DNA of 41,042 nt from an uncultured archaeon (GCA_902384675.1 CABMCT010000065.1:1-41042), one strand, 5' to 3'; counted from the first letter of the stretch, positions 4,291 to 36,139 are shown. Program-made: numbers and translations. The notes: generated from the letters alone by a model not told the origin.

Positions 4291-4378
4291 CTTCCAACCG
4301 CCGAAGGCGTTGTTGGGATGCTTGAAAATCTGTGCAATATGCATAAAGATTTTCATGATTTTAGGAATATTTCTAAGG
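4291..4378 (+). repeat. Modular palindromic repeat cluster in the tbp leader
   Basis: TTCCAAC..GTTGGGAT-GC-TTGAAAATC..GATTTTCAT-GA-TTTT; same junction grammar as the tRNA-linked clusters. Confidence 0.65.
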
Positions 4379-8261: not shown

Positions 8262-9794
8262 ATGGAAATGAAAACAGAAATCAGCGTAAAAGAGAATGAT
8301 AATGCCAGAAGGCTGGCAAATATATTTTCTATCCTTTCTATCGTGCTTGCATCTATACTTGTCATTAGCGTAAGCTCTGTCCTTAGCGCCGCTGCGCCGA
8401 ATGTCGGGCCGATAAGCGTTGAGCAGACGCAGGATGGCTCAAATACGAGCTCAAACATTACGGTAAAGGCGATAATTAATGCATCCGCGGGCACCAATGT
8501 CACATCGTGTTCGGTCCAGACAACTACTGGCGGGCTATGGTTCAATACCTCCATATGGAACCCAAATACAAGCACATGCGTGGCAAACATTAGCGGGCTT
8601 TCTGCAAATGCCACCTACCAGTTTAATATAAAAGCAATAGATAACGCAGGTAATGAAAGCGTAGGTTCTCCTGTAATAAAGGTCATAGGAAGCGCGGCCA
8701 ATATAACTGTCAGTAACGCATCAAGCAATATTACAAGCAATGTTAGTAGCATTAGCAATATTACTGCCAATATCACCAACATCACATCTAATATCACCTC
8801 AAATATTACCCAAATATCTAATATGTCTAATATTACAAACATCACCGCCCCCATGTCATTTACGACCTCGCCGGATAATGTGACTGCAGGACAAAACCAG
8901 ACAACAGTTGATTTTCCTGTGTGCTGGAACGGCTCTGATATCGGCGGGCCGGGAATAGCCAATTTCAGCCTGTTTGTTAAAAACAACACCTTGAGCTGGA
9001 TGCCCTGGACATCGCACGAAAACGCAACAAGCTTTGGCTGCGCAAACTTCACAGGAAGCACAAGAGATACATTCTGCTTTAAATCAAGGGCAACAGATTT
9101 AAACGGGACTATTGAGCCTGACAAGGACGTCGGCAATACCGGTGTAAGCTGCACTAATGTGAAAGCTTTCTCCTCCAACATCACAACTAACGGCACCAAC
9201 GTTACTGGCAACATCACTAATGTTACCGGGAATATTAGTGGCCTGTCAACATTCAATATCAGCCTATCCAGCGGCTGGAACCTGATATCCCTGCCAATCG
9301 TGCCTGTGGATAAAAGCATAACGTCGGTGCTAAAGGACATAAAAAGCAACGTAAGAAGTGTCTGGGCATATGACCCGCTAATGGCAAATTCCACAGGAGG
9401 CTGGCTGAGTTTCGCGCCGGATGCGCCAAGCAACCTTAATACAATGGACGCGGGCTTTGGCTACTGGATTGATATGGCAAACGCCAGCACCCTGACAATA
9501 TTTGGAAACTTTATGTCCCCGGCAACCACGCCGCCGCAAAGAACTCTGGTTCCCGGCTGGAACCTGGTAGGCGAGTATGGAACAGACGCCAAGAGAGCAT
9601 CTTGTTCGCTGTATTCTTTAGTCAATACAAACTCAGGCATTCCAAGATGGACTTCTCTGTGGTCGTACTCCGGAAACTTTACCCCGCTGACCGGCAATAG
9701 CACCATGAGCCCGGGAAAAGGCTTCTGGGCTGCGCTGAATTCGGAACAGGCAAGCTATATGTATGTCATAGGCGACTGCCCTTCATCGCCATAA
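8262..9794 (+). CDS. Secreted/surface glycoprotein with Fn3/Ig-like segments and Asn/Thr/Ser-rich linkers
   Basis: Hydrophobic signal segment; dense N-x-S/T sequons; YQFNIKAIDNAGNES Fn3-like strand; duplicated GWNL(I/V)...GxGYW/FW module. Confidence 0.75.
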   Translation: MEMKTEISVKENDNARRLANIFSILSIVLASILVISVSSVLSAAAPNVGPISVEQTQDGSNTSSNITVKAIINASAGTNVTSCSVQTTTGGLWFNTSIWNPNTSTCVANISGLSANATYQFNIKAIDNAGNESVGSPVIKVIGSAANITVSNASSNITSNVSSISNITANITNITSNITSNITQISNMSNITNITAPMSFTTSPDNVTAGQNQTTVDFPVCWNGSDIGGPGIANFSLFVKNNTLSWMPWTSHENATSFGCANFTGSTRDTFCFKSRATDLNGTIEPDKDVGNTGVSCTNVKAFSSNITTNGTNVTGNITNVTGNISGLSTFNISLSSGWNLISLPIVPVDKSITSVLKDIKSNVRSVWAYDPLMANSTGGWLSFAPDAPSNLNTMDAGFGYWIDMANASTLTIFGNFMSPATTPPQRTLVPGWNLVGEYGTDAKRASCSLYSLVNTNSGIPRWTSLWSYSGNFTPLTGNSTMSPGKGFWAALNSEQASYMYVIGDCPSSP

Positions 9795-17492: not shown

Positions 17493-17663
17493 GCTTTCCA
17501 ACCCATAGCAACGGGTTAATGGTTGGAATGCAGGATACGGTGTATCGAACTTTGAACCCGATGCATCGTATTCAGGGTTCAAAATCCATTCGCGACGCCT
17601 TGTCAACCATCGATTGCGTCGCTCTTGGCTTTAAAACCCAATGCGAATGAGGAATGGTTTTAA
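17493..17663 (-). repeat. Modular palindromic repeat cluster (3 units) in the fusA leader
   Basis: Arm pairs TTTAAAACC/GGTTTTAAA, TTTTGAACC/GGTTCAAAG and ATTCCAACC/GGTTGGAAA with 17-nt spacers; long linker nearly identical to the one after tRNA-Ser. Confidence 0.85.
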
Positions 17664-19859
17664 ATGGCACGAGCAAGTTTTATTGACGACCTAAAAACGA
17701 TTATCAAGGATGCAAAGAACATCAGGAATATCGCAATCTGCGCGCACATAGACCACGGAAAGACCACGCTTTCTGACAATCTTCTGTCAGGGGCAGGCCT
17801 GATTTCAAGCGAGCTGGCAGGAAAGCAGCAGTTCATGGACTTTGACAAGCAGGAGCAGGAAAGAGGCATCACGATTTACGCTGCAAACGTTTCTATGATT
17901 CACACGGTTGACGGCAAGGACTATGCAATCAACCTCATCGACACTCCGGGCCATGTTGACTTCGGAGGAGACGTGACCCGCGCAATGAGAGCAGTAGACG
18001 GCTGCGTTGTCGTTGTCTGTGCTGTCGAGGGCGCAATGCCGCAGACAGAAACAGTGCTTCGCCAGGCATTAAAAGAGCAGGTAAAGCCGATTCTTTTCAT
18101 AAACAAGGTCGACAGGCTGATAAAAGAGCTCAAGCTTTCTCCTGAAGAAGTGCAGCAGAGGCTTGCAAAGCACATTGCTGCAGTAAACACGCTTATCAAG
18201 AAATACGCGCCTCTTGAGCGACAGGCAGACTGGATGGTTGACGTAAATTCAGGAAAAGTAGTTTTCGGTTCTGCATACCACAACTGGGCAATTTCAGTGC
18301 CGTTCATGAAAAAATCAGGCGTCACATTCAAGGATATTTTTGATGCAGTAAATGGCGGAACGGAAAAAGAGTTTGCAAAGAAAGCAAAAGCATACGAAGT
18401 TCTTCTTGACGCTGTCATACACCACCTTCCAAGCCCATACGAAGCCCAGAGATACAGGATTAAGAAAATATGGACCGGCGACCCTGAAAGCCCGGAGGGA
18501 AAATCCATGGGTAACTGCGACCCGAACGGACCTGTTGTGGGCGTTATTACAAATGTAAATGTCGACCTCCATGCAGGAAGCATATGCACCGTAAGGCTTT
18601 TCTCAGGAACAGTAAAAGAGGGGCAGGCAGTATATCTTGTCAGCCAGGAATCCGAGGAAAGGGTGCAGCAGGTAGGGGTTTATGCAGGCCCGAGAAGAAT
18701 ACAATTAGGAGAGATTTCCTGCGGAAATATAATCGCAATATCCGGATTGTCAAAGGCATTCTCCGGGGAAACAGTCTGCTCCACTGAGATAAAGACTGCA
18801 CCTTTTGAGAGCATAAAGCACATATTCGAGCCGGTTGTCACAAAGTCCATCGAGGTAAAGGATGTAAAGAACCTGCCTAAAATGATAGAACTTTTGCGCC
18901 AGCGCTCAAGGGAAGACCCGACAATCGCAATAAAGATTTCCGAAAGCACAGGAGAGACTCTTGTGTCAGCGCTCGGGGAACTGCACATAGACGCCAAAGT
19001 CGAAAGATTCTTGCGCGACCGCGGGATAGACATAATTGTCTCAAAGCCTATTGTCATCTATAAAGAAAGCATTTTCAACAGCTCAGGCGAGTACGAGGGC
19101 AAATCGCCGAACAAGCACAACAAATTCTATGTAACCGTGAGCCCGATGCCTGAAAGCGTAAGGGATGCGATGAACGCAGGGCTCATCGAGGAAGGAAAAG
19201 TCCGAAAGCAGGACGTCAAATCAACTGTCGAGGAGCTTGTTGCTGCGGGAATGGACCGTGACGAAGCGAAAAAGGTCATTGACCTTTACAAGGGAAACAT
19301 TCTTCTGAACGACACAAAGGGTATTGTGCAGCTTAACGAAGTAATCGAGCTCGTTGTGCAGTCGTTCCACGAAATCTGCGACCAGGGACCGCTGGCAGGA
19401 GAGCCGGTAATGGGATTGATAATACACCTCACAGATGCAAAACTTCACGAGGACGCAATTCACCGAGGTCCTGCACAGGTGCTTCCTGCGGTCAAAGGCG
19501 CGATAAAGAACGCAATGGTTGATGCAAAGGCAGCACTTCTTGAACCAAAGCAAATTCTTCGTGTAGACTCACCCATAGAGAGAATCGGGGATGTAATGAA
19601 AGAAATCCAGAACAGGAGAGGCCAGATTCTTGAAATGGTCGAGGAGTCAGGCATGACTGTTGTCAAATGCAAGCTTCCTGTGGCAGAGATGTTCGGGTTT
19701 GAAAGCTCGCTAAAATCCGCAACAGGAGGACGAGGATTCCAGTCCCTGATTGACATAACCTACGAGAAATTGCCAAACGAATTCCAGGACAGGACGATTC
19801 TTGCAATCAGGAAGAGAAAGGGGATGAAAGAAGAGTTGCCGAGAATCGAAGTTGATTAA
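17664..19859 (+). CDS. fusA: Archaeal elongation factor 2
   Basis: AHIDHGKTT, RGITI, DTPGH, NKVD; diphthamide loop LHEDAIHRGPAQV. Confidence 0.98.
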   Translation: MARASFIDDLKTIIKDAKNIRNIAICAHIDHGKTTLSDNLLSGAGLISSELAGKQQFMDFDKQEQERGITIYAANVSMIHTVDGKDYAINLIDTPGHVDFGGDVTRAMRAVDGCVVVVCAVEGAMPQTETVLRQALKEQVKPILFINKVDRLIKELKLSPEEVQQRLAKHIAAVNTLIKKYAPLERQADWMVDVNSGKVVFGSAYHNWAISVPFMKKSGVTFKDIFDAVNGGTEKEFAKKAKAYEVLLDAVIHHLPSPYEAQRYRIKKIWTGDPESPEGKSMGNCDPNGPVVGVITNVNVDLHAGSICTVRLFSGTVKEGQAVYLVSQESEERVQQVGVYAGPRRIQLGEISCGNIIAISGLSKAFSGETVCSTEIKTAPFESIKHIFEPVVTKSIEVKDVKNLPKMIELLRQRSREDPTIAIKISESTGETLVSALGELHIDAKVERFLRDRGIDIIVSKPIVIYKESIFNSSGEYEGKSPNKHNKFYVTVSPMPESVRDAMNAGLIEEGKVRKQDVKSTVEELVAAGMDRDEAKKVIDLYKGNILLNDTKGIVQLNEVIELVVQSFHEICDQGPLAGEPVMGLIIHLTDAKLHEDAIHRGPAQVLPAVKGAIKNAMVDAKAALLEPKQILRVDSPIERIGDVMKEIQNRRGQILEMVEESGMTVVKCKLPVAEMFGFESSLKSATGGRGFQSLIDITYEKLPNEFQDRTILAIRKRKGMKEELPRIEVD

Positions 19860-20975: not shown

Positions 20976-21983
20976 TCACGCCCCGCATCCTGTATGCGGT
21001 GCTTCATCCACCGGGGTCTGCTCGGTTCCGAGCTGCTCTGAGCATTCTTTTGGCGGATTGTTGAACGTCGAGCAGATTGCAGTCAGGAAACTTTCAGGCG
21101 TTCTCTGGCCGCGATAGTTCTGCGAGTTGATTATTACTGTCGGCGAGCTTCCAACGCCCATCTTGTTGCCAAGCGCTATATTTCTGGCAAGAAGACCTTC
21201 TCCTTCACTTCCTTCAGAGCATGCTTTTATGAGTTCCGCATTTATATTGTTCTTTGCCGCGCAGGACTGCCAGTCACTTCCCTTGATGTCGGAATTCCTG
21301 CAAATGACATAATCCATATAATTTGCATAAACATTCATTGCGCAGGCCTGCCTCATATCCTCCTGCACTTCGGGCTGCCCGTGAAGCGAAGAGAATGTTC
21401 CGTCATCGTTCCTGTTTGCGATAAACCTAAGCTCAAAAGAGATTTTATTCTTAAGGGCATCAAGAACCGGCTTTATCGCATTTTCTGCCTGTATGCCGTA
21501 CGGGCACTGGCTCATTACAAAAAGCTGGACTTTCGGGACATCGGTTTTATTCAGCTTAGGCGCTTCCTCCTGCTTTGCCTTTGCCTCACTTACCTGCTTT
21601 TTGGCATTTTCGACGTCAATTGCCTGTGTAAAAAGAATGGCGCCGTCTTTTGTGGCGTAAGAAACGGCAGCGGGCTTTCCGTCAACAATAACAGAAAATT
21701 TATAGAGCCCTTTCTCTTCGGTGATATTTTCGATGCTTACCTGTACAGCGCCCTGTAATAAAGTATCCTGTATAAATGCCTGCATTTTGGCGGAAACCTC
21801 GTCTTTTCCCGTATCTGATGGCGATGATTTAGATGAACCGGAAAATGCAGAAATCAGAAGAAGAATACCAAGAATCGCCGAAATTGCTGGCCAGAAATAG
21901 CTCTTCTTCTCTTTGTTTCCAGAAGTATCCTGCCCGGATTTATCCGCCTCTTCTTTCTTTACAATCTCCTTTTTGTTTTTCAT
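20976..21983 (-). CDS. Membrane-anchored thioredoxin-fold (DsbA/GILT-like) protein
   Basis: N-terminal TM; LFVMSQCPYG, SLHGQPEV, GVGSSPTVIIN (cis-Pro loop); several additional Cys. Confidence 0.8.
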   Translation of the reverse strand: MKNKKEIVKKEEADKSGQDTSGNKEKKSYFWPAISAILGILLLISAFSGSSKSSPSDTGKDEVSAKMQAFIQDTLLQGAVQVSIENITEEKGLYKFSVIVDGKPAAVSYATKDGAILFTQAIDVENAKKQVSEAKAKQEEAPKLNKTDVPKVQLFVMSQCPYGIQAENAIKPVLDALKNKISFELRFIANRNDDGTFSSLHGQPEVQEDMRQACAMNVYANYMDYVICRNSDIKGSDWQSCAAKNNINAELIKACSEGSEGEGLLARNIALGNKMGVGSSPTVIINSQNYRGQRTPESFLTAICSTFNNPPKECSEQLGTEQTPVDEAPHTGCGA

Positions 21984-21985
21984 AA

Positions 21986-22042
21986 TTTACAACCATAACT
22001 CTATTTCTTTGGGTTGGAAAGCTTGGCACCAAAGTGCCATGA
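21986..22042 (+). repeat. Single unit plus linker of the modular palindromic repeat
   Basis: TTTACAACC-17 nt-GGTTGGAAA-GC-TTGGCAC CAAA GTGCCAT-GA fills almost the whole intergenic gap. Confidence 0.85.
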
Positions 22043-23320: not shown

Positions 23321-24298
23321 ATGAAAAATAATGGAAACAAATTGTGGGAAAATTCATATGAAAAGTTCCAGAACGTGTGCAGCCCGTTGAGAAACCGGAG
23401 CTTATTTGAGTGGCTAAGTAATGCATATCAGTTTCTGTACCTGTCTTCTGTGGACAAACAATATATACCGACGCTGGTCGACCTTAAGACATCGCTATGT
23501 ATTATTGACGTGGCAATAGACGATGCCTGCGATAATGCCGAAATGATTAAAAAAATGGGCGGGGAAGAATTTACTTACGGGATACTTGGGCTGGCATACA
23601 ACATCGACAAGCTGATGAACGACAGGCACCAGAGGGATTTTAAGATTAGCAACGAATACGGGGCTGAATATTATAGCGTATTGCACGATATCATGGAAAA
23701 TACCATAAGCACATTAAAAACGCTTCCAAGGTTTAACGAATTCAAGCACGAGTTTATAATGGCGATGAGGCGGGTTTGCCATTCAATGGAATTTTCATAC
23801 CTGATAAACAAAGGCGAAAGCGTCTATCCGTCATCGCACATTGTCGAGAACAGATCGGCTTCCACAATGGTAACCGTGCATTCCCTGCTTGATTTAATGG
23901 CTTCCCCTACGGTCAATAAAAAAGACATAGGGAAGATGATTCCGTTATTCCATATGGCGGATACTGTGGCTATGCTTGGGAATACACTGAATACCTGGCC
24001 AAGAGAGATACTGGAAAAAGATTACAGCAGCCCTGTCCTGGCACTGGCTCTGGAAAAAGGCCTTGTTGGATTTGACGAATTCTACAATAGCAAGCCGGAG
24101 GAAATAGAAAAAAAACTGTCTCCTCTTTCGGACATTATCGAGGAGCTGATAGATGCTAAATTAAACGAAATGAGAAGCCATATAAGCAACAATAACATAC
24201 AGTCCTTTGATGCAATAAAGTATGTGGAAAATTACCTGAAGATTAAGGAAGCATTCAAGAACCGCGAAAGATATTGGGAAAAACCCTGCATAGCTTAA
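23321..24298 (+). CDS. Class I terpene synthase / isoprenoid synthase-fold protein
   Basis: IDDACD (DDxxD), ENRSAST Arg, NTLNTWPRE (NSE/DTE-like) and C-terminal RY. Confidence 0.6.
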   Translation: MKNNGNKLWENSYEKFQNVCSPLRNRSLFEWLSNAYQFLYLSSVDKQYIPTLVDLKTSLCIIDVAIDDACDNAEMIKKMGGEEFTYGILGLAYNIDKLMNDRHQRDFKISNEYGAEYYSVLHDIMENTISTLKTLPRFNEFKHEFIMAMRRVCHSMEFSYLINKGESVYPSSHIVENRSASTMVTVHSLLDLMASPTVNKKDIGKMIPLFHMADTVAMLGNTLNTWPREILEKDYSSPVLALALEKGLVGFDEFYNSKPEEIEKKLSPLSDIIEELIDAKLNEMRSHISNNNIQSFDAIKYVENYLKIKEAFKNRERYWEKPCIA

Positions 24299-25690: not shown

Positions 25691-26389
25691 TTACGGTTTT
25701 GTCCTGATTATCTTATAGTACGTGACATCGCCTTCCTCGTCAACAATCGCCATCAGCGCGGTTGCCCTGATATTGTGCGAAAGCCTGACATAGCGGGACC
25801 ATTCCTGCGGGGTAAGGGTGTGGTTCTCCGGGTAGGCATGAACATTATACTTGGTATGTTCCTTTGTTTCTTTAGTCCCTGCTTTGTATGGATTAACCCC
25901 CCTATCGTAAACGCGGAAGTGCGTGCCGAATTTGAATCCGGATTTCACAATGTATCCCCTGTTTCTTAAGTCGCGGTAAACCGTAAACTTTTGAGGGAAT
26001 TCCTTGTCCACAGCCATGCATTTTTCATAAAATGCTTGCGCAGCAAGCGGCTTTCCTTCGTAATTCACTTTTATATGCCCGCGGTCAAGCAAAAGCATTG
26101 CTTCCTCAAGGCTTAGCTGAAGGTAGCTTACTTTCTCCTCTTCTACCCATTTGCCGAAATATTTCTCGGAATAAATGCGGTTTGCCTCCTCCTTGTTCCA
26201 GACCACAACCTTGTTTTCCAGAAATTCCGCATTTGCAAGGATTTCCCCGGGCTTAAAAAGAGGCTGGATTTCGGGTTTTGATATTTCAATAGTTTCCGGG
26301 TTTTCAGACTCGTTAAGAATTTCATCAGAATCTTCGATTGCTGAATCTAACTGTTCTTTATCATTCTTGTTTTTATGCTTCTTTGACAT
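25691..26389 (-). CDS. endA: tRNA-intron lyase (splicing endonuclease)
   Basis: LSLEEA, VYRDLRNRGYIVKSGFKFGTHFRVY, EH, AIVDEEGDVTYY. Start placed at MSKKH behind GAGG; the upstream ORF extension lies within a repeat unit. Confidence 0.92.
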   Translation of the reverse strand: MSKKHKNKNDKEQLDSAIEDSDEILNESENPETIEISKPEIQPLFKPGEILANAEFLENKVVVWNKEEANRIYSEKYFGKWVEEEKVSYLQLSLEEAMLLLDRGHIKVNYEGKPLAAQAFYEKCMAVDKEFPQKFTVYRDLRNRGYIVKSGFKFGTHFRVYDRGVNPYKAGTKETKEHTKYNVHAYPENHTLTPQEWSRYVRLSHNIRATALMAIVDEEGDVTYYKIIRTKP

Positions 26390-26404
26390 ATTCATCCTCT
26401 TCCA

Positions 26405-26684
26405 GTTTTCACCTAATGCATTTGGCGAATGGCGAAAGGTCATTTTTTACTCAATGCTTTTGAACCCAATGCATTGTATGTAGGGTTCAAAATCATGGAA
26501 CTAACGTTCCAAGCTTTTTCGCCCGGTGCATATTGCAAATGGCGAAAAATCCGTTCGTTCTATTCTCGGCTTGCGAACCCATAGCACTCAGTTAATGGTT
26601 CGAAATCCTTTCGTTCGCCTTGTGAGCCATTGAGTGCTTCACTCAAGGCTCTCCAACCCAAATAAGTTGGCGTATGGTTGTAGA
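26405..26684 (-). repeat. Modular palindromic repeat cluster (5 units) between tRNA-Phe and endA
   Basis: Arm pairs TCTACAACC/GGTTGGAGA, TTTCGAACC/GGTTCGCAA, TTTTTCGCC/GGCGAAAAA, TTTTGAACC/GGTTCAAAA and CCTTTCGCC/GGTGAAAAC, each with a 17-nt spacer. Confidence 0.88.
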
Positions 26685-26880
26685 TGGGGCCGACGTGATT
26701 TGAACACGTGACACCTAGATAACTGAAACACACTAAACAGGTGACTTGCAAAGCAAGTCGCCCCAGTGCTCGAGGTTATGAGGATTTTGAGGAACGAATC
26801 CTCAAAAGCTTGAAAATCTCCAAGGATTTTCATGAACCTCGTCTTCAGTCTAGCGCTCTCCCGGGCTGAGCTACGGCCCC
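26685..26880 (-). tRNA. tRNA-Phe(GAA) with 122-nt intron at position 37/38 (intron 26721-26842)
   Basis: Acceptor GGGGCCG/CGGCCCC; anticodon stem CTAGA/TCTAG; CT-GAA-G; T arm ACGTG TTCAAAT CACGT; intron TCAG pairs with CTGA (BHB central helix). Confidence 0.93.
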
Positions 26881-26898
26881 ATATTAAAACTTTGAATC

Positions 26899-27017
26899 AT
26901 CGAACCCAAAGCATCAGTTAAAGATTCGAAATCCGTTCGCGACGCCTTGCGAACCATTATACGTGTCGCTCTCGGCCTTTTTGTTTTGCATCGTTTTATG
27001 TGTGGCAAAACAAAAAG
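26899..27017 (-). repeat. Modular palindromic repeat cluster between tRNA-Asn and tRNA-Phe
   Basis: 13-bp hairpin CTTTTTGTTTTGC/GCAAAACAAAAAG, then GCCGAGA-GCGACAC..GCGTCGC-GAACGGA linker, then a TTTCGAATC/GGTTCGATG unit. Confidence 0.85.
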
Positions 27018-27090
27018 CGCCCCGGGCAGGACTTGAACCTGCGACAACATGGTTAACAGCCATGCACTCTACCTGCTGAGTTACCGGAGC
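27018..27090 (-). tRNA. tRNA-Asn(GTT), no intron
   Basis: GCTCCGG/CCGGGGC acceptor; CATGG CT GTT AA CCATG; GCAGG TTCAAGT CCTGC; TTTATAAA box at 27119-27126. Confidence 0.96.
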
Positions 27091-27138
27091 AACATTCTAA
27101 ATATAATAGGAGAAAACGTTTATAAATCCTTAGAAAGA

Positions 27139-27747
27139 TTACGATTTCTTCAAATCATCCTCCTTGCTCTGGCTCGCCCCGCTTTCGTTGAAATACTTCG
27201 CACCCTTCTTTGCGCCATACGGAACTTCCGCAGGGCTGCTCAAATTTTCAAGAACAAGCTGGCATATTCGCATGCCGCAGGTGAGCTTTATCGGAAGCCT
27301 GCCGATATTCGTAAGCTCAAGCGTGAGATACCCCTTGTATCCTGCATCGACAACGCCGGCAGTGCTGTGGACCTGCAATCCCAGCCTGCCTAAAGAGCTC
27401 CTGCCCTCAAGCCTGCCGACAAGGTCCACCGGCATCTCAACATGTTCCATAAGAGAAGCAAGAACAAATTCTCCCGGATGAAGCACAAAGGGCTTCTCGG
27501 AGATTAGAAGCGTGCTGTACTCGTATTCCTCGACTTTCGCGCCGTCAATTTCCCATTCCGCGATTTTTTTGTCATTAAAAGTGGTGGGGTCTATTGCGGA
27601 CTGGTTCGATGTCTTAAAAGTGCGAAATCGTGTGCCTAATCTTAAGTCAATAGAGCTTGTGCCCAATTGGGCTGAAAGCTCAAGAGGCGCTATTTTAAAG
27701 TCGCCTTTTTTTAATCGCGCCTTGATATCGCGGTCAGAGAGAACCAT
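27139..27747 (-). CDS. dcd: dCTP deaminase
   Basis: MVLSDRDI, SIDLRLG, LHPGEFVL, EGRSSLGRLGL, AGVVDAGYKGYLTLE. Confidence 0.94.
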   Translation of the reverse strand: MVLSDRDIKARLKKGDFKIAPLELSAQLGTSSIDLRLGTRFRTFKTSNQSAIDPTTFNDKKIAEWEIDGAKVEEYEYSTLLISEKPFVLHPGEFVLASLMEHVEMPVDLVGRLEGRSSLGRLGLQVHSTAGVVDAGYKGYLTLELTNIGRLPIKLTCGMRICQLVLENLSSPAEVPYGAKKGAKYFNESGASQSKEDDLKKS

Positions 27748-27786
27748 ACAATATATTTTCGGGGAAGGTTTATAAAAGGCAAGCAT

Positions 27787-28470
27787 TTATCGCTTTTTAA
27801 GAAGGAACTGAAATTCCATTCCTGCTCGAACAATCTTTTTTATTTTCAGACCCGACTTTTGAATTGCTTTCTCTATCTTTTCCTGTGGATATGCGTATAC
27901 TCTGATACCGTCTTTTTCTTCACCTTTTTTGAACTCCTCAAAAAGCTCCCCGCCAAGAAGTGGAAAATCTATTACGACGCGCCCCTCGGGTTTTAATACG
28001 CGCTTTGCTTCAGAAAGAACTTTTCTTGCAAAAGAAAGCGGATAATAATCCATAGCGCCCATGCACGTAACAAGATCAAAATATCGCGCATTATATCCTG
28101 TTTTTTCTATAGAACCAATAGCAATTTCTCCACTGTTGCTTATTCTTCGTTCAGCAATCTTTCGCTTAAGAATAGAAAGCATTTTCTCGGAAATATCAAT
28201 CCCGTGAACTATACATCTTTTTTCAACCAACTTCAGAAAAACCCTTCCCGTACCGCAGGCCATATCAAGAGCAACTTCACCACTTTTCGGATTTGCGAGT
28301 CTTATGAAATTTTTATCTTCAGCTTCCATCCCCCGTACCCATTCGGAAGATAATGGCGCTCGGTTTTTGATAGAAAGATGCTTTTCCAAGCATACATCAT
28401 AGAGCGATGCCTGCTTATCATACTCTTTTTTCAGTTTTTGTTTCCTGACATCAAGGGTTGCTCTCGCCAT
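27787..28470 (-). CDS. Class I SAM-dependent methyltransferase
   Basis: ALDMACGTG, GIDISEKML, FDLV, RVLKPEG. Start moved downstream to avoid overlap with the upstream gene. Confidence 0.88.
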   Translation of the reverse strand: MARATLDVRKQKLKKEYDKQASLYDVCLEKHLSIKNRAPLSSEWVRGMEAEDKNFIRLANPKSGEVALDMACGTGRVFLKLVEKRCIVHGIDISEKMLSILKRKIAERRISNSGEIAIGSIEKTGYNARYFDLVTCMGAMDYYPLSFARKVLSEAKRVLKPEGRVVIDFPLLGGELFEEFKKGEEKDGIRVYAYPQEKIEKAIQKSGLKIKKIVRAGMEFQFLLKKR

Positions 28471-28487
28471 AAACATGCAGAAAGTAC

Positions 28488-29663
28488 TTAAAACCATTTC
28501 TTTTCTTTCTTCTTTTCCTCTTCCTCTTCTTTTTTCTGCTCGCGCCATGTCGGCTTTAGTTTGTCCTCAAGCCCCCTGAGCGATGCCTTTGTGTTTCCGA
28601 TTCCGCAGGTATTGCCAACTCCTATGATTAAGATGCGCTTCTTCTTTGTATCCTTGACAAGCCTCTCCAGAATTTCAATAGCGTTTTTCTGCGCATCAAA
28701 GACCTCTTTCTTAAGCGGTATTGAAGCCTCTTCGGGTGCCATTTTTATTGCAATGCCGTCTGTAGGAATATCGTATTTCACTGCCACTTCCTCAATCTGT
28801 GAGCGCTCGACTCCGACGCCGCCCATCATAACGCCAACGCCTTCTGCAATCGAGCCGGTTTTCTCTCCTTCAAGCTTTCCTGCCGCGTCTATTGTAATTA
28901 TGTGGTCTATTTTCTCGCTCTTATGAAGTGCCTCGACTGCCTTGCCGAGTTTTCCCAAGGCGCTGCCGGGACCCTTTGCCTTAAGGACAAATACATCGCA
29001 ACCTGCGAGATTTTCCTTGCTTGCAATAACGTCCTTTGCAATTTCGCTGCCTTCCTTAGTTTTGAGGCTTGCTGCAACCATAGGCCCTATCGCATCTCCT
29101 ATCGGCATGCCGTCTGCAAATGCCTTTGTCGCCTTTGTGTTCGCCTTTGCAACCTTCATTATCATTGGCATCAGCATCTGGAGCATCATGGCATACTGCA
29201 GGTTGTTCGTTTTCTTTGTCATGATAATATAATGCCTTATCACCTTGTAAATCTGGTTAACGCCTATCGCGCCTATCAGGGCGAATTTCAGGTTTGCCTT
29301 ATCAATTGCATTCATTTTCGGTGCAATGCTTTCAACAAAATATGAGAATCTTCGCTCGGACTCATCCATTATATGCTCGATTTTTTTGACGATTCCAAAT
29401 GGATCAAGGTCAACAGGCGGGGCAATAAAGAAATCCATGAAATTCTTTACCAAATCTTTTTGCCTCTTGTCCGGCTTCGGGCTTATTTTTTTGAGAACAT
29501 AATCCTCGGAAGCCTTTCTATACCCGTCAAGCTCGGTAAGGTCGCTTTCAAGCTTGTATGTCATCTGCCATATCATAAGCCGCGGGTAAAAAAAGAAGAA
29601 AATAATCAGCAATATGAACGAAAGAATGCTGTTATCGCCTGTTAAAAAAGTTGTTATCGACAT
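28488..29663 (-). CDS. DUF1512-family archaeal protein
   Basis: PVDLDPFGIV, PIGDAIGP, IITIDAAGKLEGEKTG, GVGNTCGIG. Confidence 0.8.
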   Translation of the reverse strand: MSITTFLTGDNSILSFILLIIFFFFYPRLMIWQMTYKLESDLTELDGYRKASEDYVLKKISPKPDKRQKDLVKNFMDFFIAPPVDLDPFGIVKKIEHIMDESERRFSYFVESIAPKMNAIDKANLKFALIGAIGVNQIYKVIRHYIIMTKKTNNLQYAMMLQMLMPMIMKVAKANTKATKAFADGMPIGDAIGPMVAASLKTKEGSEIAKDVIASKENLAGCDVFVLKAKGPGSALGKLGKAVEALHKSEKIDHIITIDAAGKLEGEKTGSIAEGVGVMMGGVGVERSQIEEVAVKYDIPTDGIAIKMAPEEASIPLKKEVFDAQKNAIEILERLVKDTKKKRILIIGVGNTCGIGNTKASLRGLEDKLKPTWREQKKEEEEEKKKEKKWF

Positions 29664-29837
29664 GCACTCTTATTTAATTTTCAGCTTTATATATGTTATA
29701 GGACATAATTATCTATAATACGATACTGCCGCAAACAAGCTCGAAAAATCAGTGCGGCTGTATGCGATTCACCATATTTCGATTGATGTCGAATAGTATA
29801 TTTATTCCGCAAATGCGGATTTAACAGATGTGAAGGT

Positions 29838-30554
29838 ATGCCCGACTCTGATTCAACGCCATCCGAGAGGAAAATTGCAGCATTGCTTCTTATCGCGGTC
29901 GTTGCCGGAGCAATAGGCTTGTACAGCTACGGGCAGGAACATCCGGATACTATAAGCTCATTCAACTCTATTTTCAAGAGCATATCTTTCCCGACGGGCT
30001 TTTCCGCATTTTCCGCAGGCCGGCAGCAGACAGTTTCCATAGACTCGGAATTGACGTTCGAAACAACGCCTGCAACAGAAATAAAGCTCCAGAATCCTGC
30101 AGAAGAATTTTCGGTTTCTTTCAACAATCCCAATAATACGCTTACAATAGACGGCACTTCATGGCAATATTCTTCAGAGACCAAAGCAATATTTGAGAAT
30201 TATACCGGAAGCGTGATTCTTTCTCAGCCTTTATCGCTTTCGGGTTCGGCAAAAGGCCTCTCGGTAAATTCGGCAATAATACCGGAATCCGGCAAAGGCA
30301 TAAGCGTTTCATCGCCGTCTCTTGCGTCGGATTTTGCCATATTAAAAGGGCTGGAAGGCGTTGACCTCCAGTTAAAAAACGTAAGCGGGACAATAAATGC
30401 AAAGGATGACAAAAATTCCGCGGTGTATACAATCTCGAATATGGCACTTTCAATTTCTTCCTTTAAAGGCGATATCGAATATTACGGCAAAAAAATCGTT
30501 CTTAAAGGCTCCGGGAAAATTGACACTGAGCTGCTTGGAGTTAAAAAGGATTAG
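29838..30554 (+). CDS. Membrane-anchored hypothetical protein
   Basis: One N-terminal TM helix followed by a Ser/Thr/Gly-rich beta-type region. Confidence 0.65.
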   Translation: MPDSDSTPSERKIAALLLIAVVAGAIGLYSYGQEHPDTISSFNSIFKSISFPTGFSAFSAGRQQTVSIDSELTFETTPATEIKLQNPAEEFSVSFNNPNNTLTIDGTSWQYSSETKAIFENYTGSVILSQPLSLSGSAKGLSVNSAIIPESGKGISVSSPSLASDFAILKGLEGVDLQLKNVSGTINAKDDKNSAVYTISNMALSISSFKGDIEYYGKKIVLKGSGKIDTELLGVKKD

Positions 30555-30569
30555 AGCTGATATAATATC

Positions 30570-30989
30570 ATGCTCTCGGGCATTGCAATATCGGACAGCG
30601 TGATTCTTGTAATACTGCTTGCGGTATTCATAGTCGTAGGATACAAAGTCCTGACGATATTAAGAAACGCAATCATTATCGCTGTCCTTGCCGCGATTTT
30701 CCCGTATGCCCTGAATTATTTCGGCGCGCACTTCTCGACAACTATTTCATCAGAAATCCGTTATATTGCAGTTGCGCTTGGGCTGTACCTGATTTATGAA
30801 ATCATTATCCTGATTTTTGGAATCGGCAGGTTCTTCTGGGCGGCTTTAAAAATTCTTGCAACGCCGATTGTGTGGATTGGCGCGGCGATAAAGAAGCTGC
30901 TGTTTGGCGGGAAGAAAGAGGAAAAGGAAGAGAAGAAGGGTAAGGGTAGCGAGAAAGAAAAGGAAGATGAGAATAAAAAGGAGGATTAA
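30570..30989 (+). CDS. Small membrane protein with charged C-terminal tail
   Basis: Three to four hydrophobic segments; K/E-rich tail. Confidence 0.65.
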   Translation: MLSGIAISDSVILVILLAVFIVVGYKVLTILRNAIIIAVLAAIFPYALNYFGAHFSTTISSEIRYIAVALGLYLIYEIIILIFGIGRFFWAALKILATPIVWIGAAIKKLLFGGKKEEKEEKKGKGSEKEKEDENKKED

Positions 30990-31531
30990 GCATCTTTGAA
31001 AAATTGAACCGCAAACTTGCAAAATTCAATAATTGTTTCTTTATCGGTTTCAAACTCTTTTCTGCTGCCAAGATACTGGAATTCTTTTCCATTTTTCAGT
31101 TCCTCGACTGTCGCGCATTTTATGTGCTTCTTTGAGACAAGGATTATGTGCGCATTTCGATAAGGATAATCGTCGCCGCCTAACTTTTCATAATTAAATT
31201 CGCCATCGGCTCTAAACTTTACTTCTACAAAAAATACCTCTCCGGTTCTTTTATTCTGGACAACAAAATCCGGCATCCTTTTGATATTTTGCGCGACATC
31301 GCCTCTTACGCCCCTAAGCAGAGTCATAACACCGGGAATACTATTTTCCATTCCGTATCTGAAAACGTTATAATCTAATGTCAGAAAAAGTTCCTCTATT
31401 ATTGTTTCCGCAATTCGGCCTTTTATAACCTGATATCTATAGCCTATCTCCTTCTCTTTTTTAAAGCATTCGAGACACAAATCATGCGAACTATTCGTCA
31501 GTCGCGCGCCGCAATTTGAGCAGGAAGCCAT
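30986..31531 (-). CDS. PD-(D/E)xK nuclease-fold protein with N-terminal Zn ribbon
   Basis: CSNC...CLEC; GRIAE...MPDFVV...FFVEVK. Confidence 0.75.
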   Translation of the reverse strand: MASCSNCGARLTNSSHDLCLECFKKEKEIGYRYQVIKGRIAETIIEELFLTLDYNVFRYGMENSIPGVMTLLRGVRGDVAQNIKRMPDFVVQNKRTGEVFFVEVKFRADGEFNYEKLGGDDYPYRNAHIILVSKKHIKCATVEELKNGKEFQYLGSRKEFETDKETIIEFCKFAVQFFKDA

Positions 31532-31604
31532 AGAAGAGAATATGCCACAAAATTTAATAAACACGTTAATTCTTAAATTTTATTGATTATCTATATAGAG
31601 ATGC

Positions 31605-31675
31605 ACGGCAATGGTCCAGTGGTATGATGCGGGCTTCCCAAGCCTGCGATCCGGGTTCGATTCCCGGTTGCCGTA
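31605..31675 (+). tRNA. tRNA-Gly(CCC), no intron, A1-U72
   Basis: ACGGCAA/TTGCCGT acceptor; CGGGC TT CCC AA GCCTG; CCGGG TTCGATT CCCGG. Confidence 0.93.
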
Positions 31676-31902
31676 TCTACAGCCATTCACCAACATACTT
31701 GGGCTGGAGAGCCGAGAGTTCCGCACATAATGGTTGGCAAGGCGGAACGAACGGATTTTTTGCCATTAACCTAATGCTTTGGGCAAAAAGGAACTTTGCG
31801 TCGCGAATGGATTTCGAACCATTCGCCAATTGTGCCATGTTCGAAAGCTTGACACAGAGTGTCATGATTTTCAACCATTCATTAATTGCAATGTGTTGAA
31901 AT
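31676..31902 (+). repeat. Modular palindromic repeat cluster (4 units) immediately 3' of tRNA-Gly
   Basis: Arm pairs TCTACAGCC/GGCTGGAGA, TTTTTTGCC/GGCAAAAAG, TTTCGAACC/TGTTCGAAA and TTTTCAACC/TGTTGAAAT. Confidence 0.88.
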
Positions 31903-31936
31903 CGGGGTGATAAACTCATTCCCCTTAAACTTGAAA

Positions 31937-32089
31937 TTATACCGGCCTGCGCCCCTGGATTATCCTGATAAGCACGATTATAATTGCGAGGATAAGTAAA
32001 AAATGGATAAACCCGCCTATAGTGTACGCAGTTACCATTCCCAACAGCCACAAAATGATAAGAATTGCTGCAATAGCTTCTAGCCACAT
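31937..32089 (-). CDS. 50-aa membrane protein (lmo0937/DUF5670-like)
   Basis: Not in ORF track: MWLEAIAAILIILWLLGMVTAYTIGGFIHFLLILAIIIVLIRIIQGRRPV, with AGGTGA Shine-Dalgarno. Confidence 0.85.
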   Translation of the reverse strand: MWLEAIAAILIILWLLGMVTAYTIGGFIHFLLILAIIIVLIRIIQGRRPV

Positions 32090-32212
32090 ATTAGTCACCT
32101 TAGTTGGTAATGGTCATTGTGGCGGTTATAAAGCTTATCATAAAGCGGCGCTCATGCTGGCGATTGTCGAAAAATGCATATGTTTTTATAACTGACCGGC
32201 TAAATCAGTTTT

Positions 32213-32542
32213 ATGATAACCTGGGATGATTTTGAAAAGGTGGAAATTAAAGTTGGAACAATTATCGAAGCAGAAGAATTTCCGCAGGCAAAGAATCCGG
32301 CATACAAGCTTAAAATCGATTTCGGGAACTCGCTGATTAAAAAGTCAAGCGCACAAATCACAGAGCTTTACAAAAAAGATGACCTGGTCGGCAGGCAGGT
32401 TATTTGCGTGACGAATTTTGCGCCAAAACAGATTGCGAACTTTGTTTCCGAGGTTCTTGTTCTTGGTGTTGTCCTTCCGGATAAAGAGGTTGTATTGCTA
32501 CAGCCGGAAAGAAAGGTTCCGGAAGGATATCGGATTGGCTAA
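32213..32542 (+). CDS. csaA: CsaA / tRNA-binding OB-fold protein
   Basis: DDFEKVEIKVGTI...PAYKLKIDFG...SSAQIT...NFAPKQIANFVSEVLVLG. Confidence 0.9.
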   Translation: MITWDDFEKVEIKVGTIIEAEEFPQAKNPAYKLKIDFGNSLIKKSSAQITELYKKDDLVGRQVICVTNFAPKQIANFVSEVLVLGVVLPDKEVVLLQPERKVPEGYRIG

Positions 32543-33110
32543 TGCCTGCATCTTGCGGAAAACACAAAGCGTTCATATACCGGAATGCAAGCATTGTGCT
32601 GATAAAAGACAGCCCAATCATAAAAACAAACAATGCTCCAAAGCCAAAAGTGTAGACTACTGCCGCGCCGATAAGAGGCGCTCCTCCGGTGATAAAAGAA
32701 TTTATGCTCATATTAAAACCCCACTCCGGCGAGAACCCGCGGTTATCCAGGTGCGCTGCAAACAATGAATTATAAGATAAGCTGCCCATTGCTTCCCCCA
32801 GCGCGAGAAATAATTGAATCAGATATAGCTGCCAGACACTGCCGGCGAAAATATACCCCATCCAGCCTGTTGCCCGAAAGACAAACCCGAGTATCAGGAG
32901 ATGGCTGACATATTCCCGGGAATGCTTCCATCTGCTGACAAAATAAGCGAGTATGCCGACAGAAAGAATGTAAAAGCTCCATATCCCTCCGATGTTGACA
33001 ACTCCGACATCCATCTTCTGGATGTATGAGGCGTAAAGAGGCGCAAACATATTTATGGCAAAAACGAAAAACGAGTTGATTAACATAAGGTGTTTAATTT
33101 GTTTGCGCAT
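32400..33110 (-). CDS. Half-size MFS transporter
   Basis: About six TM segments, LALGEAMG, APLIGA. The 3' end overlaps csaA antisense. Confidence 0.65.
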   Translation of the reverse strand: MRKQIKHLMLINSFFVFAINMFAPLYASYIQKMDVGVVNIGGIWSFYILSVGILAYFVSRWKHSREYVSHLLILGFVFRATGWMGYIFAGSVWQLYLIQLFLALGEAMGSLSYNSLFAAHLDNRGFSPEWGFNMSINSFITGGAPLIGAAVVYTFGFGALFVFMIGLSFISTMLAFRYMNALCFPQDAGISQSDILPEPFFPAVAIQPLYPEGQHQEQEPRKQSSQSVLAQNSSRK

Positions 33111-33270
33111 GGTAACCCTGCCATTAAGATGGGAACTCAATAATATATATTTAACGATATAGTTAGCGGATTGAATGACAGGGATTCTAATAGAGCATCC
33201 TGAAGGCAAGTTGCACCCGCCGGGAGCTATTAAAACCCTTTTTATTCTTTCCCACTACATTAGATTACGT

Positions 33271-33460
33271 GCCGGAGTCGCATAGCTCGGTAGTGCGACG
33301 GTCTCGAACAGTTTCTTTTCTTTCTTTTTCAAAGAAAGAATAGACAAATCTGGGTAGAAAAGAAAGAAACCGCCGACTTGCGCATCAGCGCAAGTCACCA
33401 GATATCTGTGAGCTAACCGTTGTCCGCAAGGACTCGCAGGTTCGAATCCTGCTTCCGGCG
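33271..33460 (+). tRNA. tRNA-Ser(CGA) with 106-nt intron at position 37/38 (intron 33309-33414)
   Basis: GCCGGAG/TTCCGGC acceptor; ACGGT CT CGA A...A ACCGT; long variable arm GTCC GCAA GGAC; G discriminator; intron TGAG pairs with CTCG. Confidence 0.93.
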
Positions 33461-33678
33461 TTTTTCGACATTAGCCAATGGGGTTGGTCGAAAAAGCCAA
33501 GAGCGACGCAATCGATGGCAGACAAGGCGTCGCGAACGGATTTCGAACCATTCGCCAATTGTGCCGGATTCGAAAGCTTGACACAAAGTATGCTGATTTC
33601 CAACCATCTGCTAAATGCGTTGGGTTGAAACAAAAGATTGATGTGAAACGTTTCACATCAACAGCTTTGGGCGAAAAT
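33461..33678 (+). repeat. Modular palindromic repeat cluster (3 units plus 24-bp perfect palindrome) immediately 3' of tRNA-Ser
   Basis: Arm pairs TTTTTCGAC/GTCGAAAAA, TTTCGAACC/GATTCGAAA and TTTCCAACC/GGTTGAAAC; TTGATGTGAAACGTTTCACATCAA at 33638-33661. Confidence 0.88.
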
Positions 33679-33688
33679 TACACTTTAT

Positions 33689-34336
33689 TTACTTCTCCTT
33701 TAGCAATCTCGTAATCCCGTTCACGTGCCCTGCCCCGACCACAACAACAATCGTGCTGAACTGCTCCTGCAATTTTCTGATATTGCGCGCCATGTGCCGG
33801 TTTCTCTCCTCGATAAGAACTTCGTAAATCGCCGGGAACTCCCTCTTTAACTCGGTTAGCGCGCGCTCAATCAGCTTTTCGTCGGGCACCTTGTTCAAAT
33901 CGATTTCGGCAAGCATGGTAACACCCTTGATAGGCACGCCCACAAGCGCAGGGATTAAATAAACCAGAAGCTTAAGTTTGCCGAAAAATCCGAGTTTTTT
34001 CATCAGGCGCGAAACAGTATAGTTTATGTCCTGGTCGATAAAAGCACACCGCACGCCGTTCATTGTGGCGAATTCAACAGCAGCCATCATCTCAGTGCCG
34101 GGAAAAATATTCGTCTGCTTGCTCAGATTCTCCTGCAGCTTTTGCATTAATGTCAGTATTGTTTTTTGCAAAAAAGGTAGTTTCACCTCGCCTCTTTGCT
34201 TATAAAGCATCGCATAATACCTGTTATAATCGAGTTCTACTGCTATGCATTCCGGCTTCTTTTCCTTTATCGCTTCTTTTACTTTTTCGACACTTTCGCG
34301 CGCGATGTGCGATGTTCCGATGATGTAGACTGGCAT
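33689..34336 (-). CDS. TraB/PrgY/GumN family protein
   Basis: IIGTSH, IAVELD..R, PGTEM, IDQDI, EERNRHM, VVGAGH. Confidence 0.88.
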   Translation of the reverse strand: MPVYIIGTSHIARESVEKVKEAIKEKKPECIAVELDYNRYYAMLYKQRGEVKLPFLQKTILTLMQKLQENLSKQTNIFPGTEMMAAVEFATMNGVRCAFIDQDINYTVSRLMKKLGFFGKLKLLVYLIPALVGVPIKGVTMLAEIDLNKVPDEKLIERALTELKREFPAIYEVLIEERNRHMARNIRKLQEQFSTIVVVVGAGHVNGITRLLKEK

Positions 34337-36102: not shown

Positions 36103-36139
36103 TCCGTTCATCTCGCTTTGCTCGTTCTCGGCTTTTCAA
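36103..36139 (-). repeat. Linker module of the modular repeat family
   Basis: TTGAAAA-GCCGAGA-ACGAGCAAAGCGAGAT-GAACGGA matches the GCCGAGA...GAACGGA linker ends. Confidence 0.6.

Follow-up and report, generated by a model that had tools for sequence, protein, structure and literature searches.

Modular hairpin arrays at tRNA 3' ends and start codons in a genus of small DPANN archaea

The stretch of DNA analysed here (the window) is contig C65 of the small genome of an uncultured DPANN archaeon (GCA_902384675.1, CABMCT010000065.1, 41,042 nt; genome G000, 1.2 Mb in 76 contigs, 44% G+C, 89% complete), and each of its four tRNA genes is followed by an array of short hairpin modules, between positions 26,405 and 33,678. 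The arrays belong to a family of structured modules whose hairpin arms covary, whose mismatches are biased to one strand, which is restricted to a single genus and differs site by site from the sister genome (G001, same genus, 95% complete), whose copies nest within one another and which meets tRNA genes and start codons in exact junctions. We infer, with about as much doubt as confidence, that the arrays are genus-specific, tiny, non-coding, modular and non-autonomous mobile elements that move by transposition via a single-stranded intermediate. An earlier note on this DNA had described the arrays from the sequence alone, and its claims are taken up below where the results bear on them.

Architecture, covariation and strand bias of the modules

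The unit is 35 nt long and comprises a 9-bp arm, a 17-nt loop and a second 9-bp arm, as the earlier note had stated and as both sequence reading and an ungapped profile, iterated over the genome to convergence, confirm; its consensus is TTTTCAACC-ATTCACCAAATGCTTTG-GGTTGGAAA. In the alignments units begin with TTTT or TCT and finish with AAA(A)GC, and within arrays they are placed head-to-tail. The two linker types previously described are both present. Linker B is formed by GCCGAGAG, a stem of 6–7 bp enclosing a 17-nt loop, and CGAACGGA, with conserved purines in a symmetric 3x3 internal loop (AGA/GAA), while linker A is formed by GCTTG, a stem enclosing a short loop, and CATGA. The arrays have unlike ends, with an S or a T unit at the left and a terminal unit at the right.

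The observation that the arms change in sequence and stay complementary is borne out by the alignment of 41 copies of linker B plus unit (40 distinct), in which 93.0% of the cells are paired as against 78.7% in shuffles and both-side changes occupy 116 cells as against 32.8, neither value being reached by any of 500 shuffles. When the partners are slid by 1–3 columns pairing falls to 23–53%. RNAalifold yields the same helices, and the covariance model of linker B plus unit (R1) finds matches with E-values down to 1e-22. The variety is considerable, with 79 distinct unit arm pairs and at least 10 different linker B stems, which also covary. Single-strand folding recovers the annotated unit-B-unit hairpins, with folding-energy z-scores that are modest under RNA parameters (-1.6, -2.2) and strong under DNA parameters (-7.0, -6.8).

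The mismatches that remain in the unit arms are unevenly distributed between the strands. Read in the tRNA sense, G-T mismatches outnumber A-C mismatches by 44 to 11 over all copies and by 29 to 11 over the 79 distinct arm pairs, and the hybrid pairing of a TTTTCAACC with a GGTTGGAAA arm is common, the reciprocal being rare. S units read in the sense of the gene that they precede display 15 A-C and 3 G-T mismatches over 34 distinct arm pairs, so that the same physical strand is concerned, antisense to the gene; linker B stems, with 3 against 2, hold too few mismatches to judge. Since strand-symmetric mutation predicts equal numbers of G-T and A-C, the bias points to one specific single strand, of DNA or RNA, that is constrained or exposed. 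The A-C character of the S-hairpin mismatches in the gene sense led us to abandon the idea that this hairpin is selected as an mRNA 5' structure, and a comparison of neighbouring modules by eye did the same for pairing between the linker B loop and unit arms.

No known class of structured repeat accounts for the modules. As already noted earlier, the arrays are not CRISPR: the units differ from one another, the intervening sequences are repeated linkers and there is no constant repeat with unique spacers. In the window the tRNA family alone matches in Rfam at the gathering score, and a permissive scan of 26350–27120 returns only chance-level microRNA and snoRNA matches far below their gathering scores. 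By eye, neither units nor linkers fit C/D box, H/ACA, K-turn or bulge-helix-bulge motifs.

Arrays at tRNA 3' ends

tRNA genes were detected with ARAGORN and Rfam, and the intron-allowing mode of ARAGORN adds tRNA-Phe and tRNA-Ser in the window. At all four window tRNAs sequence reading confirms a hairpin of 35–39 nt that starts at the base after the discriminator, in the orientation of the tRNA, followed by alternating linkers and units. On the minus strand, tRNA-Asn(gtt) (27017–27090; ARAGORN and Rfam) is followed directly after its discriminator by a trailer hairpin of the T2 type (26978–27016), by a linker B hairpin for which the covariance model is among the evidence (26932–26976) and by a unit whose 3' arm is degenerate (26897–26931). 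Further along the same strand lies tRNA-Phe(gaa) (~26685–26881, ends from sequence reading), whose intron of ~122 nt contains a short unit (26785–26807) and a linker A (26808–26835), placed by sequence reading on the plus strand (26785–26835) and hence antisense to the tRNA. Directly 3' of its discriminator a T1-type unit (26650–26684) opens an array, all on the minus strand, that continues with linker B (26606–26649), a unit (26571–26605), a short linker B without the inner hairpin (26550–26570), a unit (26515–26549), linker A (26493–26514), a unit (26458–26492), a degenerate linker (26440–26457) and a final unit (26405–26439), beyond which GAGGA leads to the next minus-strand gene, whose ATG is at 26390.

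The other two arrays lie on the plus strand. tRNA-Gly(ccc) (31605–31675; ARAGORN and Rfam) is followed by a T1-type unit (31676–31710), linker B (31711–31755), a unit (31756–31790), a truncated linker B of which sequence reading reveals only the 3' half (31791–31811), a unit (31812–31846), linker A (31847–31867) and the terminal unit (31868–31902). Similarly, tRNA-Ser(cga), which holds an intron of 106 nt (33270–33460; intron-allowing ARAGORN), has a unit directly 3' of its discriminator (33461–33495), then linker B (33496–33540), a unit (33541–33575), a degenerate linker A found by sequence reading (33576–33596) and the terminal unit (33597–33631).

The claim that every tRNA carries such an array holds for the window and fails for the genome. 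Among the 24 tRNAs of G000 that were examined (19 from ARAGORN and 5 more from Rfam) a hairpin lies immediately 3' of 11, and 13 have no such trailer. Eight of the 11 were flagged by a strict script; tRNA-Ala (C13), tRNA-Met (C23) and the window tRNA-Phe were added by reading the flanks because the end given by ARAGORN was 1–2 nt off. Against a background of 101 clusters of units in 1215 intergenic intervals this is a clear enrichment (binomial P 1.2e-6), although only ~12 of the 101 clusters adjoin a detected tRNA. Thus, tRNA 3' ends are a preferred yet minority site of the family. The units that follow tRNAs are special subtypes, T1 (TCTACAACC..GGTTGGAGA) and T2, which has 12-bp arms (TTTTTGTTTTGC..GCAAAACAAAAA), follows five tRNAs in G000 and starts with a run of five T, the usual archaeal stop signal; T units would form the tRNA 3' trailer, a putative role. 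In G001 a trailer hairpin is flagged by the script at 2 of 20 tRNAs, and 4–5 are seen by eye.

Modules are also found beside the 16S rRNA gene. In G001 contig 36 (~23,374–23,480; L155) a short unit and linker A lie no more than ~50 nt beyond the 16S 3' end (..GGATCACCTCC), so that modules occur in the rRNA spacer of this genome; the 16S end of G000 lies outside its assembly.

A separate observation concerns the large tRNA introns (100–235 nt), which share the motif GGCGAC..hairpin..GTCACCTGT, contain repeat modules and vary in presence between congeners. They occur in the window at 26685–26881 (minus strand) and 33270–33460 (plus strand), in G000 C13 at 6580–6900, in G001 contig 34 at 58067–58268 (L063) and in L174. 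The tRNA-Phe intron is present in G000 and L174 and absent from G001 and L176, the tRNA-Gly(ccc) intron is present in G001 and absent from G000, and a tRNA-Asn intron is found only in L174. These introns look like mobile introns.

S units at start codons

The exact position that the family takes most often is not the tRNA 3' end, the preferred target in the earlier note, but a protein gene's start codon, with the unit antisense to the gene. CAT stands directly 5' of the first T in many units. In the gene sense the S unit reads TTTTTAATC-CAATGAAAATGGAGAAT-GATTAAAA up to the ATG, its last base being the A of the start codon. Searched with an S-unit profile, G000 yields 53 hits, of which 45 abut the ATG of an open reading frame (ORF) of at least 60 aa and 4 more that of a short or contig-end ORF, while 3 or 4 are internal to arrays. 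For G001 the figure corresponding to the 45 of 53 is 12 of 20. Where genes run in tandem without a tRNA, units are oriented opposite to the genes in 36 clusters, in the same direction in 7 and mixed in 1 (P ~9e-6).

The window holds one such gene, that of elongation factor EF-2 (ORF 17664–19859, plus strand, ATG at 17664), whose N-terminus reads as a normal aEF-2. The array before it is complete, with three units and linker B (17493–17664), and runs on the minus strand from an S-type unit (17630–17664), the first base of which is complementary to the start codon's A, through linker B (17585–17629), a unit (17550–17584) and a linker A variant identified by sequence reading (17530–17549) to the terminal unit (17495–17529). 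A unit (21986–22020) with linker A (22021–22042) lies on the plus strand (21986–22042), 2 nt from the CAT (21981–21983) of the minus-strand ORF 20976–21983. These are two of four additional copies listed in the earlier note and are real; the other two, a degenerate short hairpin with a linker-A-like hairpin (4291–4358, plus strand) and a degenerate short fragment of linker B (36103–36132, minus strand), are recognised by eye and missed by both the hidden Markov model (HMM) and the covariance model.

Essential, highly expressed genes are among those preceded by S units. When 20 others were checked with Pfam, 13 were named and 7 had no hit; the named ones include the genes for ribosomal proteins L14, S8, L19e, S5 and L30, seryl-tRNA synthetase, aEF-1beta, RNase P p30, FttA and peroxiredoxin. 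L14, S8, L19e, S5 and L30 all lie on contig C62, which carries nine arrays in 10.8 kb.

Comparison with G001 suggests what preceded the S units. An ortholog is found there for 44 of 45 S-unit genes, with an S hit in 2 by a proximity test and an S-like hairpin in ~8 by eye; the remaining orthologs have GGTGAT-type sites 5–7 nt before the ATG, which is the usual Shine–Dalgarno (SD) register of the genome. In most pairs the protein N-termini align from residue 1. A local alignment of the 70 upstream bases of G001 with the upstream region of G000 is significant (z>=4) at 15 of 32 loci, and at 7 of these 15 G000 has the conserved block shifted by 38 nt (L19e), 76, 102, 106, 112 (L14), 172 and 213 nt. 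At L19e, L14 and C54 6877 the length from block to array in G000 is about that from block to ATG in G001. Because the old block is kept, distal and at matching length, a solo unit or an array probably entered within a base or two of the ATG, and at these start codons the old upstream site appears now to be distal and decaying in G000.

The S unit displays a conserved GGAG, GAGG or GGGG 10–11 nt before the ATG, ~2 nt beyond the usual SD register, and a T-rich, TATA-like arm at -34..-26, ~4 nt further upstream than the T/A signal seen across the genome at -30..-23. As essential genes have lost their old site, the S unit presumably allows initiation, and it is a putative ribosome-binding and/or promoter signal. 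Upstream of 1078 ORF starts of G000 the profile is T-rich (-30..-27) and then A-rich (-26..-23), with GGTGA-type sites 4–7 nt before the ATG, a pattern that points to leaderless-type genes alongside SD-led ones.

Genomic extent, genus restriction and turnover

The family is genome-wide and larger than the earlier note described. In G000 the unit profile returns 104 units at E<0.01; at E<0.1 it returns 142 that do not overlap, grouped into 101 clusters spread over most contigs. The full composite unit-B-unit (115 nt) is present at ~44 loci. Of the 142 units, 110 lie outside ORF calls. Together, units and recognised linkers make up 8.3 kb or more, equal to 0.7% of the genome and to 5.6% of what lies outside ORF calls; short unit types go undetected, so these values are minima. 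The arrays fill nearly whole intergenic spaces and have no coding capacity.

A covariance scan of the genome and its relatives, proposed in the earlier note, was run with R1 and gives 101 matches in G000. Under stricter filters the model finds 71 matches in G000 and 36 in G001, and 2 weak matches (E ~0.002) in G007, a genome of the same order; there is none in the other 58 genomes, many of them incomplete, of which 39 share the order and 19 are archaea from outside it. The pattern recurs in 16 metagenome stretches, 70–85% identical to G000 or G001 and with 24 R1 matches, which represent additional congeners. Neither viral contigs nor the records of phages and plasmids hold a match to the family. 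The closest relatives of the EF-2 protein among named metagenome-assembled genomes (MAGs) belong to the Aenigmatarchaeota, at 59–70% amino-acid identity, and no units lie upstream of EF-2 in the more distant Aenigmatarchaeota and other DPANN MAGs examined. Thus, the family is confined to one genus, in G000, G001 and some metagenome contigs. The findings of no Rfam match, of significant covariation and of enrichment at tRNAs all run the way the earlier note had anticipated for a family of this kind.

Between the sister genomes most sites differ. G001 holds 27–31 units. Both flanks of 68 of the 101 G000 clusters map collinearly in G001, and 58 of these 68 intervals contain no unit at E<0.1, an upper estimate since the unit HMM misses some unit types, while 10 do. 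In G001 there is no array before EF-2 and none after tRNA-Gly, whose intron (~120–140 nt) contains a unit and linker A. The Asn/Phe locus displays four different states in four genomes. In G000 the order is tRNA-Asn, T2, linker B, unit, tRNA-Phe with its intron, T1, array and gene; in G001 (L063, contig 34, ~53750–53902) tRNA-Asn and an intronless tRNA-Phe are 1 nt apart and are followed by T2, linker B, unit and gene. In L176 tRNA-Asn is followed by T2, linker B, two units, a spacer and tRNA-Phe, with no array after the latter, and in L174 an intron-bearing tRNA-Asn is followed by a T2-like hairpin, linker B, a unit and an intron-bearing tRNA-Phe.

Signs of copying and candidate enzymes

Several features of the arrays suggest that modules are copied. 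The loops of some units harbour unit-plus-linker modules, which follow ..CCA or ..GGA, precede TTTT and leave the rest of the host loop intact. One unit occurs in five identical copies, four of them within the same ~150-nt composite at four different gene starts, and chimeric, truncated and internally deleted linkers are present. The base A, mostly as CA, precedes 124 of 142 units.

The absence of a transposase from the window, as first described, is confirmed. The only Y1 transposase gene of G000 belongs to an ordinary insertion sequence (IS) of the IS200/IS605 type on another contig, with ends that look unrelated to the units; this copy (C57 2142–4087, at a contig end; L001) encodes a TnpA of 129 aa and a TnpB of 403 aa, and a second TnpB lies on C74 (4027–4224). 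G001 holds three solo IS200-type TnpA genes and no TnpB. All four Y1 proteins pass the IS200 model (98–144 bits, cut-off 55) and score 26–32 bits with the REP_Tyr_transpos model (cut-off 80), so that no REP-associated tyrosine transposase (RAYT) is present among them. The hairpins that flank the four genes look unrelated to the units. Tyrosine recombinases give two hits in G000 (C12, C25) and 12 match rows in G001, none linked to arrays, and the RVT_1 reverse transcriptase is absent from the 89% complete G000 and the 95% complete G001. An IS200-type TnpA acting in trans is the sole candidate mobilising enzyme seen.

Relation to known repeat families

Small interspersed palindromic mosaics are well known in bacteria. 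Repetitive extragenic palindromes (REP), their mosaics (BIME) and REPINs, which RAYT mobilises, are described as short imperfect palindromes, extragenic, present in over 100 copies, arranged in mosaics with linkers and thought to move as single strands (PMC3733652, PMC2817692). The archaeal family likewise has more than 100 copies (142 units in 101 clusters), is extragenic and builds composite mosaics with two linker types. In contrast to REP, its units have A/T-rich 9-bp arms and a conserved 17-nt loop instead of a G+C-rich stem, are arranged head-to-tail instead of in alternating orientation, form base-exact junctions with tRNA ends and start codons, and reside in an archaeal host; in the alignments they lack a GTAG or CGTC tag. 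With neither RAYT nor tag the family is not a member of REP. The structural constraint, the lack of coding capacity, the modular build and the likeness to REP/BIME proposed in the earlier note therefore stand, and REP membership does not.

Palindrome-associated elements derived from IS200/IS605 have strand-specific hairpins, no terminal inverted repeats and no target duplication, and insert beside a short word. The present family resembles them in the strand-specificity of its hairpins, as the G-T over A-C bias on one strand of both generic and S units indicates, in the lack of inverted ends and of clear duplication, and in the presence of Y1 transposases in both genomes. It differs in having no fixed target word of 4–5 nt, in the apparently unrelated ends of the resident IS copies and in far more extensive stacking and nesting.

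Correia elements of Neisseria carry terminal inverted repeats and a TA duplication, whereas neither feature is found here, where the junction is the start codon itself and the ribosome-binding-like motif lies in a hairpin loop. Pneumococcal BOX elements are modular, with few box types in variable number, and the mycobacterial interspersed repetitive units (MIRU) lie between cistrons within operons and provide translation signals for the next gene via small overlapping reading frames. The present family resembles BOX in its modular build and MIRU in its intercistronic position and translation signals, and differs from both in sequence, size and host; BOX and MIRU have no link to tRNA ends, and small overlapping frames of the MIRU type were not found here. 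Work on Correia elements, promoter-bearing miniature transposable elements with inverted-repeat ends (MITEs) and 'promoter reuse' describes small repeats that, placed immediately upstream of genes, supply expression signals (PMC10969869, PMC3575422). Promoter-bearing MITEs of the Correia type and intercistronic repeats of the MIRU type are thus analogues of the present family in function. Archaeal MITEs are small non-autonomous repeats of Sulfolobus, Halobacterium, Haloquadratum and others (PMC10969869). Unlike the present family, they derive from known IS elements and have inverted-repeat ends; with no inverted ends matching a resident IS and no clear target-site duplication, the family is not a member of the MITEs. 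The analogy with integron attC sites, also drawn in the earlier note, fails, as the units flank ordinary housekeeping genes and there is no integrase beside a cassette array. The literature searched, supplements aside, lists no such repeats, and no MITEs, for DPANN archaea. Thus, the family works like REP/BIME or IS200/IS605-type miniature elements and is a member of neither REP, MITE nor attC.

Mobility and its alternatives

If the arrays are mobile elements, the mobile module would be the 35-nt hairpin unit with its conserved loop, usually followed by one of the two hairpin linkers. Modules would be copied or inserted singly or as composites, beside each other (thereby building arrays), inside loops, after the last base of tRNAs or directly before start codons. 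Copying would proceed via a single-stranded intermediate of one fixed strand, RNA or, in the manner of REP and IS200/IS605, single-stranded DNA, and the hairpins of this strand would have to stay intact. On insertion the S unit may supply a T-rich, TATA-like arm, a GGAG 10–11 nt before its last base and that last base as the A of the ATG, while T units may supply the tRNA 3' trailer. Since the end modules would take over from the signals that they displace, copies would persist even among the clustered ribosomal-protein genes.

Several observations weigh against mobility. No mobilising enzyme is tied to the family: no unit lies near any of the four Y1 genes, the ends of the resident IS copies look unlike units, and G001 has three Y1 genes to the single one of G000 yet fewer units. 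Across 142 units no target word extends beyond the preceding A, and the junctions examined display neither terminal inverted repeats nor a clear target duplication, a duplication of TTTT being possible within an ambiguous T run. No recent insertion with near-identical flanks was found, the only metagenome overlap being 75% identical, and at 70–85% identity an insertion is indistinguishable from loss in the sister genome; the count of empty sister intervals is an upper one, and the gene calls are crude ORF calls of this analysis. Between 85 and 92% of S units stand exactly at an ATG, which is hard to explain by random insertion followed by selection. Finally, the copies share descent, so that the covariation and G-T counts overstate the number of independent events, and folding energy displays no difference between the strands under either RNA or DNA parameters.

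The alternative that survives best, a possibility we rate as rather unlikely, is that the modules are the lineage's own expression signals, for stopping, starting, ribosome binding and the processing of tRNA and rRNA, spread by recombination or gene conversion and not by transposition. Such host signals would account for the position-specific subtypes, with T units only after tRNAs and S units at the ATG, for modules after the 16S 3' end of G001, for their presence at essential, highly expressed genes, for intergenic spaces nearly filled by arrays and for the lack of a linked transposase. They fit poorly with restriction to one genus, most sites being absent from the sister genome, where orthologs use ordinary SD sites, with copies nested in loops and tRNA introns in either orientation without an obvious signal role, and with a pairing strand that is antisense to the protein genes served by S units.

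A bolder form of mobility, which we consider unlikely, is that of a self-propagating 'gene-boundary cassette', which, under the guidance of something that reads gene or transcript boundaries, would insert itself with single-base precision at start codons and at tRNA 3' ends and carry its own ribosome-binding, promoter or terminator signal. Guidance might come from an anti-SD-like loop pairing with ribosome-binding sites or from joining to the 3' ends of nucleic acids. If true, such a cassette could colonise a ribosomal-protein operon and rewire the expression of essential genes, and would represent a mode of mobility and of ribosome-binding-site replacement that is not known from any domain.

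A small chance is given to trans-acting or processed small RNAs, transcribed in the tRNA sense with tRNAs and rRNA or alone, whose loops AUUCACC and AUUCUCC resemble the 16S 3' end and might serve to bind a protein or to pair with ribosome-binding sites. The folding strand is indeed the tRNA-sense strand, the loops are conserved with a complement that is the genome's preferred SD, GGTGA (the 16S 3' end of G001 being that cited above), and the purines of the linker B internal loop are conserved. Upstream of protein genes, however, the promoter would have to lie inside a coding region, site turnover is high, and neither an Rfam family nor a pattern of the C/D box, H/ACA or K-turn kind was found.

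The chance is slighter still that elements are added to 3' ends, such as the tRNA 3'-OH or a run-off mRNA copy, in a step that is either templated or a ligation, and become fixed in DNA afterwards. The exactness of the junctions would then be understandable, since both kinds may coincide with RNA ends (the tRNA discriminator and, for a leaderless mRNA, the A of its AUG), and the genome-wide upstream profile suggests many leaderless genes; no RVT_1 reverse transcriptase is found in G000 or G001, however, and in G001 the orthologs of the S-unit genes are not leaderless but SD-led. Duplex sites bound by a dimeric protein of chromatin, of an origin or of regulation, which the palindromic shape, fixed 17-bp spacer and conserved centre recall, are scarcely credible, since a sequence-reading protein does not allow arms to vary while staying complementary and the strand-specific G-T over A-C bias argues against duplex sites.

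The family combines three unusual traits: base-exact junctions with tRNA ends and start codons, a one-strand pairing signature without a matching transposase, and end modules that appear to replace the ancestral ribosome-binding site of essential genes (EF-2 and the ribosomal proteins L14, S8, L19e, S5 and L30). If the modules are mobile elements, they show a streamlined 1.2-Mb symbiont-type genome tolerating, and perhaps using, the invasion of its most conserved operon by repeats, and they would constitute a natural set of portable archaeal translation-start modules. In such genomes the family confounds the prediction of gene starts and of tRNAs.

Other features

Three further features were noted. 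A tyrosine recombinase of 434 aa is encoded right after a tRNA in G000 C25 (39442–40572) and probably marks an integrated element unrelated to the hairpin family. In the window, ORF 8262–9794 (510 aa) contains internal direct repeats of 23–29 nt at 8724–9244 and probably encodes a repeat-containing protein. Beyond the tRNA-Ser array a perfect hairpin (region of GATTGATGTGAAACG / CGTTTCACATCAAC) lies at 33636–33669, facing the 3' end of the convergent ORF 33689–34336.

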